The notes beneath the pieces are model-generated. The model made no database searches. It saw nothing but the letters and a program-made list of their open reading frames with translations, and was not told the DNA's origin. A program made the translations under genes and the position numbers. 64,000 bases of DNA from Escherichia phage vB_EcoM_ACG-C40. The DNA is taken from sequence record NC_019399.1, one strand, 5' to 3'. Below are positions 8,217 to 49,190 of this stretch, one piece after another (the stretch's first letter is position 1; each line of letters begins with the position of its first letter).

Positions 8217-9500
8217 ATGGCTAAAATCAACGAACTTCTGCGCGAATCAACCACAACGAATAGCAACTCAATCGGTCGCCCAAATCTCGTTGCTTTGACT
8301 CGCGCTACCACTAAATTAATATATTCTGACATTGTAGCAACGCAAAGAACTAATCAACCTGTTGCTGCTTTTTATGGTATCAAATACCTTAACCCGGATA
8401 ACGAATTTACATTTAAAACTGGTGCTACTTACGCTGGCGAAGCTGGGTATGTAGACCGAGAACAAATCACAGAATTAACAGAAGAGTCTAAATTAACTCT
8501 CAATAAAGGCGATTTATTCAAATATAATAATATCGTTTATAAAGTATTAGAAGATACACCATTTGCTGATATTGAAGAAAGCGATTTAGAATTAGCTCTT
8601 CAGATTGCAATCGTTCTTTTAAAGGTTCGTCTATTTTCTGATGCTGCAGTAACAAGCAAATTTGAAAACTCTGATAGCGAAATTGCGGATGCTAGATTCC
8701 AGATTAATAAATGGCAAACCGCAGTTAAATCTCGTAAACTTAAAACTGGCATCACAGTTGAATTAGCACAAGATTTAGAAGCAAACGGATTCGATGCTCC
8801 TAATTTCTTGGAAGATTTGCTTGCAACTGAAATGGCGGATGAAATCAATAAAGATATTCTGCAGTCTTTGATTACAGTATCAAAACGCTATAAAGTTACA
8901 GGAATTACTGATACTGGATTCATTGATTTGAGTTATGCATCTGCACCTGAAGCTGGTCGTTCATTATACCGAATGGTGTGTGAAATGGTTTCACATATCC
9001 AGAAAGAATCAACTTATACAGCAACGTTCTGTGTTGCTTCAGCTCGTGCCGCTGCGATTCTTGCTGCATCAGGTTGGTTAAAACATAAACCAGAAGATGA
9101 CAAATATCTTTCACAAAATGCCTACGGGTTCTTAGCTAATGGTTTACCGCTTTATTGCGATACCAACAGTCCATTAGATTATGTAATCGTTGGCGTAGTA
9201 GAAAATATTGGTGAAAAAGAAATTGTTGGATCAATTTTCTATGCTCCGTATACAGAAGGTCTTGACTTAGATGACCCTGAACATGTAGGTGCATTTAAAG
9301 TTGTTGTTGATCCAGAAAGCTTACAACCGTCTATCGGTTTATTAGTTAGATATGCTTTATCAGCAAATCCTTATACCGTAGCAAAAGATGAAAAAGAAGC
9401 AAGAGTAATTGATGGTGGAGATATGGATAAAATGGCGGGTCGTTCAGATTTGTCTGTTTTATTAGGTGTTAAGCTACCAAAAATTATCATTGATGAATAA
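8217..9500 (+). CDS. 24: Head vertex protein gp24
   Basis: 427-aa ORF with capsid-protein-like sequence; T4 length and position. Confidence 0.95.
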   Translation: MAKINELLRESTTTNSNSIGRPNLVALTRATTKLIYSDIVATQRTNQPVAAFYGIKYLNPDNEFTFKTGATYAGEAGYVDREQITELTEESKLTLNKGDLFKYNNIVYKVLEDTPFADIEESDLELALQIAIVLLKVRLFSDAAVTSKFENSDSEIADARFQINKWQTAVKSRKLKTGITVELAQDLEANGFDAPNFLEDLLATEMADEINKDILQSLITVSKRYKVTGITDTGFIDLSYASAPEAGRSLYRMVCEMVSHIQKESTYTATFCVASARAAAILAASGWLKHKPEDDKYLSQNAYGFLANGLPLYCDTNSPLDYVIVGVVENIGEKEIVGSIFYAPYTEGLDLDDPEHVGAFKVVVDPESLQPSIGLLVRYALSANPYTVAKDEKEARVIDGGDMDKMAGRSDLSVLLGVKLPKIIIDE

Positions 9501-9530: not shown

Positions 9531-10535
9531 TTAACTTACCAATTCAATCCAAGCCGGACGAAGTACATCTTGTACCATTTTAACTAATTCCTTCTTAATC
9601 AAAGAAGGATTATCCGCTTGAGTTAGAGTAATACCTTCACGAGAAGTTTCTTCCAAAATATCTTGAACAGTTAGCCCCATCACCTTTCCAAAATCTTTTG
9701 GACCAATTTCACCAATTTTAGAAATAACGTTATTTACTCGGTTCAGTGTAACGTAGCAAGCTAAAATTCCCACCAATTTGTTATCAGCTTCTGATAGTTC
9801 AACTTTAGCTTTAATAGGCTTATCAGACTTTTTCTTTTCACTAAATTTGGAATTCTTGCATTTGATGGCTACACGATTTCCATTATGAAGTCAAGAAGGA
9901 TAACAAGGTTTCAATACATATCCTTCAGCGGTAAATACTTCGCCTTTGGCTTCAGCTTTCCAAACACATTTGTTAGCGTCAACTAATCCAGCATGGTCTA
10001 CTGTAAAATTATAATCTTGGACGACAGAATCTAAATCATTTGGCAATTTAATAAGCTCTTCAAATTTACCGCGACCTAAAAGTGGAGCCATTTTAAATTT
10101 AAATGTATTACAAAATGATTCCATCATATAATCATCGACATAAGTCACATCACCACTTTCTGTAGTGACAATAATGTCAAATACATAAAAATCTTTATCG
10201 CCATAATCGACATTCTTCTGAATGCCAGGTCCAGCGAATTCGCCAAAGACTTGATAAGATACAACCGCTGAGGTTTCCATAATATCTTGTACTGCTTTAA
10301 TAGAATCTTCGTAATTCTTTAGAATAATTTCATACCCAAAGAAATCTTCAGCAGGAAGAATCGGTCCAGTACGTTTAGCGCAAGTTACTTTATCACGCTC
10401 AATAATCAATGAGAAATTTGTGCCGTGAATCTTTTCACGAGCTACCCACTCCCCACCAGTCAATCCCAAGCTATAAAGTTTTTCAATAAATTTAGAGTTG
10501 TAATGATTTTCAAGACTGCTATACTTTTTAAACAT
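9531..10535 (-). pseudogene. rnlB: RNA ligase 2 (rnlB) interrupted by an in-frame TGA
   Basis: ORFs 9891..10535 (214 aa, KIHGTN adenylyltransferase motif) and 9531..9776 are in the same frame; a single TGA at 9891-9893 separates them; 214+1+38+81 = 334 codons, the recalled T4 Rnl2 length. Confidence 0.8.
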
Positions 10536-10544
10536 AATTAATCC

Positions 10545-10823
10545 TCAAAATGTAATTTCTAACCAATCACCATCACGCTGATCACTATTGACTTTAAAGC
10601 TGAATCCTTCTTTTCTCAGCCAATCACCAATTTCTTCAGTAATCAATTTATCACGAGCAATACAATAATAACTAAAATGTGTTTTACCTTGTTCAGCTGC
10701 TTTATTAGCAAGTTCCGAAAAATCTTTAATAAAACACTCTAGCTTAAACTGTTTACTTTTAAGTGCTTTTTCGCGCAATTGATTAGCAAAAGATTCATTT
10801 TCATAAAGATCATACTGTTCCAT
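10545..10823 (-). CDS. Hypothetical protein (24.2-like position)
   Basis: 92-aa ORF in the rnlB-hoc operon direction; start not verified. Confidence 0.55.
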   Translation of the reverse strand: MEQYDLYENESFANQLREKALKSKQFKLECFIKDFSELANKAAEQGKTHFSYYCIARDKLITEEIGDWLRKEGFSFKVNSDQRDGDWLEITF

Positions 10824-11025
10824 TTTTCACCTTTTTATTGATATGTCTTTTTCTATAGACGACTTTTTCTCGAGTTTCAAATTTATTTTTAGCAGTCATA
10901 GCTCGAGCCCATAATACAGCCACTTCTTTTGCCTGTAAGTTTAATTCACGAGCAATTTCAATGAATGACTTTCCAGACTCATGAAGAGTAAACACCACAA
11001 CCTCAGTTCTCATAATCAATCTCAT
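10810..11025 (-). CDS. Hypothetical small protein (24.3-like position)
   Basis: 71-aa ORF; start not verified. Confidence 0.45.
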   Translation of the reverse strand: MRLIMRTEVVVFTLHESGKSFIEIARELNLQAKEVAVLWARAMTAKNKFETREKVVYRKRHINKKVKNGTV

Positions 11026-11081
11026 GTTATCGAGTTGATGCCATTATATACATCATTTTCTGAGTATGTTTTGTGTGCTTT

Positions 11082-11109
11082 CAAAATGAAGAAAGGGGCC
11101 GAAGCCCCT
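11082..11109 (-). terminator. Rho-independent terminator downstream of hoc
   Basis: On minus strand GGGGC-TTCG-GCCCC hairpin followed by TTTCTTCATTTT. Confidence 0.6.
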
Positions 11110-11126
11110 TATGATTATGATTATGA

Positions 11127-12258
11127 TTATGGATAGGTGTAGATGATACCAGTTTCTAAAGCAGTTTTATGAATGATGTATCCATTGCGTGATTCTTGAA
11201 CATCAACTTCTGGATAGTCTTTCATCATCTTCTGAAGAGTGTAACGATGCAGGTAGTATTTACTGTCTGGATCTTCAGTTTTCCAATCTTTACCTTCTTC
11301 GGTCATTTTTTGGATTTCATCCATAACCCACCAACCGCACCAGATATAAGCTGAAGTACGATGTGGAAGAGGATGAACATAAGGTAGTTCACCTTCTGGT
11401 TCTGGAGCAACTTTATCAGTTACCTGAACTTGACCTTCTGCTGTAATAGTTTTGCTATCATAATCAGTTGCAGTAACGACAGCAGTAACTTCAATAGTTT
11501 GACTTCCAACAGATGAGGTATCGACAGTATATACGTTAGTTGACCCTTCTACAGGAGAAGAATCTTTCTTCCATGAGTAAGTAATTTGTGCTTCTTCTGG
11601 AGCACCCGTAACATTAGCCGTAAATGTAGCCGAAGCATCTTGCTGAACATTAATAGAAGGAGGAGTCAATGTAACCTGTGGATTCATTGTCTTCTTATTA
11701 ACTGTCAATGATACTTCATTAGAAGTAACTTCCTTTTCATTGTAATTTTCAGCAGTTACTTGCGCTACACACTTGATTTTTTTTAACTCCACTTGTGTCA
11801 GGAGTGTAATTGAATGTAGCGTCAGTTGCTTTGTCTACAGGAGAACCGTCAACGTGCCATTGATACGTAGGGTTTGCACCTGATGGCTGTGAAGCTAAGG
11901 CAGCGGTAAATTCAATTGGAGTTCCAATCACTCCAGCATCAGGGCTACCAGGAGTTACAGCTAAAGTAGTTGTTTGTGTCTTATTTTGAACTGTGATAGT
12001 TGTACTAATTTCTGCTGTTTCAGGTTCAGATTCTGCAACTTGATTGGTTGCAACTACTTTAATAGTCTTTTGACCGGCAGGTCCTTTTAGTACATAACTA
12101 AAAGTTGCTGACGTTTCTTCCTGTGGAGCGTCGTCTACAGTCCAAGCATATGTAATAGATCCATCTCCAGTTTGACCACTGGGTGTAGCAGTAAACTGCT
12201 GAGTCTGATCTATAACTCCAGTAGGTGTTTTAGGAGTTATATCAACTGTAAAAGTCAT
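11127..12258 (-). pseudogene. hoc: Head outer capsid protein Hoc, frame broken by a +1 shift in a homopolymer
   Basis: N-terminal ORF 11749..12258 (169 aa, MTFTVDITPKTPTG...) and C-terminal ORF 11127..11792 (221 aa) overlap in different frames; the junction is a run of 8 T at 11777-11784; removing one base joins them. Confidence 0.75.
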
Positions 12259-23376: not shown

Positions 23377-24341
23377 TGTATTCTTTAGAGGAATTTAATA
23401 ATCAAGCAATAAACGCAGATTTCCAACGTAATAATATGTTCAGCTGTGTTTTTGCTACAACTCCATCAACTAAAAGCTCTTCGTTGATAAGTTCAATTAG
23501 CAACTTTTCTTATAATAACTTGGGCCTAAATTCAGATTGGTTAGGATTAACTCAAGGCGATATTAATCAGGGAATTACTACGCTAATTACAGCTGGCACA
23601 CAAAAACTGATAAGAAAATCAGGGGTTAGTAAATATCTTATTGGTGCCATGAGTCAACGTACAGTTCAAAGTTTATTAGGCTCATTTACAGTTGGTACAT
23701 ATTTAATTGACTTCTTTAACATGGCATATAACTCATCTGGATTGATGATATACTCTGTAAAAATGCCAGAGAATAGATTATCCTATGAAACTGACTGGAA
23801 CTATAATTCTCCTAATATTCGTATAACTGGGAGAGAATTAGACCCTTTGGTTATTTCATTCAGAATGGATTCAGAAGCTTGTAACTATCGTGCAATGCAA
23901 GACTGGGTTAACGCTGTTCAAGACCCAGTAACTGGATTGCGTGCTTTGCCGCAAGATGTCGAGGCAGATATTCAGGTTAATCTTCATTCTCGCAATGGAT
24001 TACCACATACTGCGGTGATGTTCACTGGATGCATTCCAGTGTCCGTAAGCGCTCCTGAGTTATCATATGATGGAGATAACCAAATAACTACATTTGATGT
24101 TACTTTTGCGTATAGAGTGATGCAGGCTGGAGCAGTTGATAGACAAGCTGCCCTTGAATGGCTTGAATCTGCTACTATAAATGGTATTCAAAGCGTTCTC
24201 GGAAATAGTGGAGGTGTTACTGGACTATCTAATTCGCTTTCACGACTTAGTAGATTAGGGGGAACTGCAGGAAGCATTTCAAATATTAATACTATGACAG
24301 GAATTGTCAATTCGCAGAGTAAAATATTAGGAGCAATATAA
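23376..24341 (+). CDS. 54: Baseplate tail tube initiator gp54
   Basis: 321-aa ORF, tube-protein-like, T4 position. Confidence 0.9.
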   Translation: MYSLEEFNNQAINADFQRNNMFSCVFATTPSTKSSSLISSISNFSYNNLGLNSDWLGLTQGDINQGITTLITAGTQKLIRKSGVSKYLIGAMSQRTVQSLLGSFTVGTYLIDFFNMAYNSSGLMIYSVKMPENRLSYETDWNYNSPNIRITGRELDPLVISFRMDSEACNYRAMQDWVNAVQDPVTGLRALPQDVEADIQVNLHSRNGLPHTAVMFTGCIPVSVSAPELSYDGDNQITTFDVTFAYRVMQAGAVDRQAALEWLESATINGIQSVLGNSGGVTGLSNSLSRLSRLGGTAGSISNINTMTGIVNSQSKILGAI

Positions 24342-49107: not shown

Positions 49108-49190
49108 TTTATTTCCTTTTTAATTTAATTTAATTTAATTAACAGTTGGTGCTATGACACTTTACCTCATAGCTGGCATAATTCGCAATA
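49108..49190 (-). promoter_or_regulatory. Gene 32 translational operator (UUAAA repeats plus upstream structured region)
   Basis: Minus strand upstream of ATG: ...GUUAAUUAAAUUAAAUUAAAUUAAAAAGGAAAUAAA-AUG, preceded by ...AUGCCAGCUAUGAGGUAAAGUGUCAUAGCACC, the segment recalled as the gp32 autoregulatory pseudoknot. Confidence 0.7.

Follow-up and report, generated by a model that had tools for sequence, protein, structure and literature searches.

Four in-frame stop codons behind hoc in a T4-like phage as a probable by-product of slippage in a hexanucleotide repeat

Length polymorphism of simple sequence repeats (SSR or VNTR loci) through slipped-strand mispairing, the mechanism associated with Streisinger, is a classic phenomenon and was first worked out on phage T4. 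The hexanucleotide repeat described here, which lies behind the hoc gene of a T4-like phage, resembles such loci in its perfect head-to-tail arrangement of a short unit, in its changes by whole units and in its invariant flanks. As in those systems, copy number has changed repeatedly on near-identical backgrounds, and the short direct repeat TAA..TAA provides a seed. It differs from the usual SSR or VNTR locus in being very short, with at most four units seen, and from the on/off repeats of coding and promoter regions in its position within the 3' untranslated spacer of a lytic phage. The polymorphism is therefore of a known kind, and no published mention or description of the hoc-end case was found in the literature searched.

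Other described systems close to this locus concern the stop codons and the terminator that accompany the repeat. Li et al. (NAR 2016; PMC4824070) studied the lambda tR2 terminator with an engineered reporter in uninfected E. coli and saw almost full repression at 8-9 bp from the stop codon, maximal termination beyond ~30 bp and a strong influence of sequence at 17-18 bp. The hoc-end terminator likewise stands close to the stop of a translated gene, at 4-22 nt, a range in which ribosome occlusion altered termination efficiency in the reporter, but it is a predicted terminator of a T4-like phage. Tandem stops maintained by selection, as documented for yeasts and ciliates (PMC1088959, PMC6879139), share with the hoc end the close placement of further in-frame stops, at most a few codons from the primary one. 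Unlike these, the extra stops of hoc vary across relatives, a single extra stop occurs at the level expected from composition, and the further copies represent one expansion. A further counterpart is T4 itself, where the predicted terminator after hoc has the same hairpin (GGGGCUUCGGCCCC), the same U-rich tail and the same place after the gene, although its stem base lies 4 nt past the stop rather than 16 nt as seen here.

The window analyzed, a stretch of 64,000 nucleotides, belongs by similarity to a T4-like phage of the genus Tequatrovirus. A 701-nt query around the feature matched 677 phage records, most of them from phages of Escherichia, Shigella and Yersinia, and the matched segment carries a hoc annotation. 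As the region is 94-99% identical to the annotated hoc of T4-like phages, including T4 (NC_000866), the gene at 11127..12258 on the minus strand is identified as hoc, which encodes the head outer capsid decoration protein. Read directly on the minus strand, its end is ATC TAC ACC TAT CCA, then TAA TCA TAA TCA TAA TCA TAA, followed by GGGGCTTCGGCCCC TTTCTTCATTTTG. The first TAA (11129..11127) closes the ORF at 11127..11792 and is homologous to the T4 hoc stop. Three more TAA codons in the same frame, with TCA between them, occupy 11123..11121, 11117..11115 and 11111..11109, corresponding to codons +2, +4 and +6 after the stop; T4 has one of them. The initial annotation had described this run as three TAATCA units plus TAA, created by a TTATGA tandem repeat on the plus strand and followed directly by a terminator hairpin and a T-run, and each of these elements was recovered at the positions it gave. 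Tandem Repeats Finder places TTATGA at 11109-11131 with a period of 6, 3.8 copies and 100% matches, which on the minus strand is a perfect repeat of CATAAT x3.8. With this span the tract reaches 2 nt into the last sense codon of hoc (CCA), while its other end lies in the base of the hairpin stem. Because the 6-nt unit holds a TAA in the hoc frame, every added unit automatically supplies one more in-frame stop, and the four TAA codons are one repeat rather than four independent events.

The repeat is far beyond what chance would produce, as no other perfect tandem repeat of period 4-9 in the 64 kb window reaches 23 nt and 60 first-order Markov simulations of this DNA yielded none. The second perfect short tandem repeat, next in length, is TTTAA x4.4 at 49119-49140. 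One additional in-frame stop shortly after the end of a gene, on the other hand, is unremarkable in this AT-rich genome (64% A+T). At least one such stop occurs within the next three codons of 13 of the 60 long ORFs (22%), or ~7-13% per position, and at least two occur within six codons in 4 of the 60. Only hoc has three, and these are explained by the single repeat, so that no excess of extra stops over composition was found. A 51-aa plus-strand ORF across the repeat (10981..11136, including YDYDYDYG) was rejected as a gene; it is antisense to the 3' end of hoc, and the portion encoded by the repeat grows or shrinks with the unit count.

The hairpin was located by the terminator scan at 11110..11093 (minus strand) and consists of seven pairs, AAGGGGC with GCCCCUU, around a C(UUCG)G tetraloop. 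The first two bases of the hairpin AAGGGGCUUCGGCCCCUU are the AA of the last TAA, giving a 2-nt overlap, and a U-rich tract, UCUUCAUUUU, lies directly 3' of it on the same strand (11083..11092). RNA folding gives the hairpin -12.3 kcal/mol (z = -2.6), with no shuffled sequence as stable, and the predicted fold is unchanged between one unit and three units. The repeat RNA itself is predicted to be unpaired and without interaction with its surroundings. Every Tequatrovirus and Mosigvirus locus sampled has the same hairpin sequence, even Mosigvirus with diverged flanks, and since the hairpin never varies there is no covariation to support it. Several Tequatrovirus records in GenBank annotate it as a terminator predicted by ARNold or TransTerm. 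Together, the hairpin and the U-rich tract 3' of hoc on the same strand form a predicted intrinsic (Rho-independent) terminator; the literature searched yielded no experimental 3'-end mapping at T4 hoc, and no Rfam family matched between 10700 and 11500.

Hairpins abutting a stop codon are common elsewhere in the window, where 7 of the 11 predicted terminator hairpins start 0-4 nt past a stop. The ORF ends concerned are at 9500 (+), 24341 (+), 24370 (-), 27183 (-), 31987 (-), 40047 (-) and 57060 (+), and their hairpins carry UUCG, GAAA or GCAA tetraloops. The pair at 24341 and 24370 looks like one bidirectional hairpin common to convergent genes. Stop-abutting tetraloop hairpins thus seem to belong to the general design of this genome.

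The number of repeat units differs widely among relatives. For a census, a query of 121 nt with the repeat at its centre was matched to 544 phage records, in which alleles were told apart by match length and identity band. Taken mostly from BLAST match lengths rather than sequence reads, and with RefSeq/GenBank duplicates counted, the census gives four units in a single record (D5505, 127-nt match), three units in 16 records (121-nt match), two units in about 60-66 (115-nt match) and one unit or fewer in about 457 (~84%), the last group falling in a band of 80-90% identity with a 12-nt gap or other spacers. A synthetic six-unit query returned no record with more than four units and again gave 16 with three. 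In addition to the window, 44 loci from GenBank, IMG/VR and metagenomes were read directly. A pattern scan of IMG/VR contributed only 3 loci and a metagenome scan 25, with 13 discarded as unrelated chance matches in which other genes ending TATCCATAA lie near the same common hairpin.

In these direct reads the spacer between the hoc TAA and the hairpin core falls into nine types. One TCATAA is found in T4 (NC_000866, reading CCA TAA TCA TAA GGGG), T2, RB7, ime09, teqhad, Elenatom and several metagenome contigs. Two are found in HP3, HY03, Sf21, PYPS2T, U115, Killian, ZCEC15, L018 and L021, three in the window, fFiEco06, fPS-65, G10400, YUEEL01, UTI-E4, ES19, REP2, KMB26, sb3 and L019, and four in D5505. 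The remaining spacers are TCGTAA (ST0, L024, L025), TCGTA (Aplg8), TCAA (WFK), TCTCA (PP01, L001) and TCGAAA (L023, L027), and with the last three no second in-frame stop is found nearby. Across the loci read, the count of in-frame stops after hoc ranges from 1 to 5. Differences in copy number are always whole 6-nt units between invariant flanks.

Comparison of the 330 nt on either side of the spacer places these changes on near-identical backgrounds. The flanks of HP3, with two units, are identical over the 660 nt to those of YUEEL01, fPS-65, KMB26 and UTI-E4, with three. One site in 660 nt separates D5505 (four units) from HY03 (two units), and one site separates the window (three units) from U115 (two units). 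These three pairs or groups imply at least three separate copy-number changes accompanied by 0-1 substitutions, and copy-number turnover in them outpaces substitution in the flanks. In a neighbour-joining tree of the flanks the copy-number classes are interleaved and not monophyletic, and the phages in which three units follow hoc are assigned to different species and have hoc genes that range in length from 1116 to 1707 nt. A downstream haplotype (…AAAACATACTCAG…) is common to all alleles with at least two units except sb3 and is also carried by the one-unit contig L002. This sharing indicates that common descent and recombination, and not independent slippage, account for part of the distribution. 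To judge from the sequences compared, expansion probably began in one lineage and was followed by repeated change and by spread through recombination. The hoc gene itself varies in length among phages with the same 3' end (1116, 1131, 1137, 1416, 1419, 1425 and 1707 nt), a spread consistent with gain or loss of whole Ig-like domains, and the GenBank record of RB30 (AY101183) describes an intragenic repeat that added a domain to hoc.

The feature is very likely a slippage-made hexanucleotide microsatellite in the spacer between the hoc stop and the terminator, with the extra stops as a by-product. In the commonest state, which is that of T4, the two TAA codons of TAA TCA TAA form a 3-nt direct repeat 6 nt apart, and replication slippage across this microhomology would duplicate one 6-nt unit. 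A two-unit tract would then slip more readily, and whole units could be gained or lost to give the alleles of 1, 2, 3 and 4 units. As every unit brings its in-frame TAA along, the extra stops would not represent a selected device, and selection most likely acts on the expansion little or not at all. In physical terms the expansion only shifts the hairpin from 4 nt past the stop in T4 to 16 nt in the window, a spacing that results from the two extra repeat units. The initial annotation had offered a microsatellite remnant as one of two readings, and this one is upheld by the finding of 1 to 4 units in Tequatrovirus that change between identical or near-identical flanks. The comparison of hoc 3' ends across T4-like phages that it proposed as a check went against conservation, as the number of units varies without pattern in close relatives, and this refutes a conserved functional repeat. 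The feature is real and non-random, yet it is an ordinary length polymorphism and not a conserved safeguard.

A more functional role for the spacer length is conceivable, if improbable. Copy number could determine how far the hairpin lies from the terminating ribosome and thereby tune termination after hoc versus continuation into 24.3, 24.2 and rnlB. In a variant of this idea, the spacing might also adjust the protection that the hairpin gives to the 3' end of the hoc mRNA, and a slippery repeat would render such tuning heritable and reversible. Positioned after the stop and with a length that is a multiple of 3, the hexamer cannot shift the hoc frame. It would instead be a phage contingency locus that grades termination via transcription-translation coupling and not via frame or promoter spacing, which we consider equally doubtful. 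Depending on the allele, the stem base lies 4, 10, 16 or 22 nt past the stop, inside the range to which tR2 is sensitive (PMC4824070). The first gene past the terminator on the same strand is a homologue of T4 gene 24.3 (DUF2774; 10810..11025, minus strand), recognized from the ORF list and the annotations of T4 and relatives. In the interval leading to it, a consensus scan found only weak sigma-70-type matches (9 of 12), inspection found no MotA box or late promoter motif, and a TATAAT at 11048..11043 has no usable -35, extended -10 or MotA box. With promoter signals this scarce, downstream expression may depend on readthrough. The promoter scan gave 4 hits, fewer than the 5.8 in shuffled sequences. 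The -10-like CATAAT motifs made by the repeat itself were rejected as promoters, the match being weak (9 of 12) and the terminator immediately next to them.

Nonetheless, tight spacing is evidently tolerated, and the 0-4 nt seen at 7 of 11 hairpins makes it the usual arrangement in this phage. One unit or fewer is retained in about 84% of records, none of the other features examined is associated with copy number, and late transcription in T4 may not be coupled to translation as it was in the reporter system. If spacing did act in this way, it would grade readthrough into 24.3-24.2-rnlB or the stability of the hoc mRNA.

The other reading of the initial annotation, a guard against readthrough, is very unlikely and is not supported by the comparison with relatives. 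The tandem TAA codons would here be kept by selection to catch ribosomes reading through the hoc stop and so prevent a C-terminally extended Hoc on the capsid. Hoc is an abundant late protein of T4, which counts in favor of such a guard. A second in-frame stop is indeed found two codons on in most sampled Tequatrovirus, as TAA in T4, T2, RB7 and others and as TAG in Aplg8, where it is formed by a different spacer (TCGTA). The selected tandem stops of yeasts and ciliates would be a precedent (PMC1088959, PMC6879139). However, WFK, PP01, L001, L023 and L027 manage without a nearby second stop, the unit count shifts freely between near-identical phages, and no conservation of the extra stop above that of neutral sequence was found in relatives. 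Composition alone yields an extra stop within three codons after 22% of long ORFs, and a third and fourth stop would bring essentially no gain once a second exists. The primary hoc stop is a TAA with T as the next base, a context that ranks with the most efficient for termination in E. coli and speaks against the need for a guard. Moreover, hoc in the window is frameshifted upstream of the stops.

This frameshift (+1) divides the gene into ORFs 11749..12258 and 11127..11792. Aligned to hoc of fFiEco06 and T4, the window's gene has 1132 nt versus 1131 nt, and the site of the change is an A8 homopolymer at 11777..11784 (T8 on the plus strand), where intact relatives have A7. An A7 run and an intact hoc with the same local sequence are present in teqhad, PYPS2T, ST0, L003, L019, L023 and L027. 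The run is A6 in T2 (AP018813) and PM107, while PM105 has a different one-base change in an A-run, and in all three hoc is annotated as a split CDS. Either the A-run is a natural site at which this dispensable decoration protein is recurrently switched on or off, or sequencing errors recur at the homopolymer. A genuine extra A would end translation ~620 nt upstream, so that ribosomes would not arrive at the four TAA codons; a sequencing error would leave the argument for slippage unaffected. A second disruption occurs in rnlB (RNA ligase 2; 9531..10535, minus strand), which has an in-frame TGA at 9893..9891 within an otherwise intact frame of 334 codons. The codon at this site is Trp215 (TGG) in fFiEco06 and D5505, and we take it to be Trp215 in T4 as well. 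The TGA is best read as a recent nonsense mutation, a miscalled base or a leaky opal codon. In HY03, UTI-E4 and T2, rnlB is also annotated as truncated or split.

While these two apparent gene-breaking changes nearby could indicate an imperfect sequence, an assembly or sequencing artefact that miscounted the repeat in the window can be dismissed, as 16 independent database records that stem from different laboratories, and also the metagenome contig L019, have the same three-unit allele, and a 23-nt hexamer repeat is far below any read length and not a homopolymer.

The striking run of four stops carries little biological weight, being the by-product of a six-base slippage polymorphism. The locus is nevertheless a small, fast-changing length marker among near-identical T4-like phages and could help to type therapeutic stocks. 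The natural alleles of 1-4 units also provide a ready test set for whether the distance from stop to terminator affects termination in a phage.
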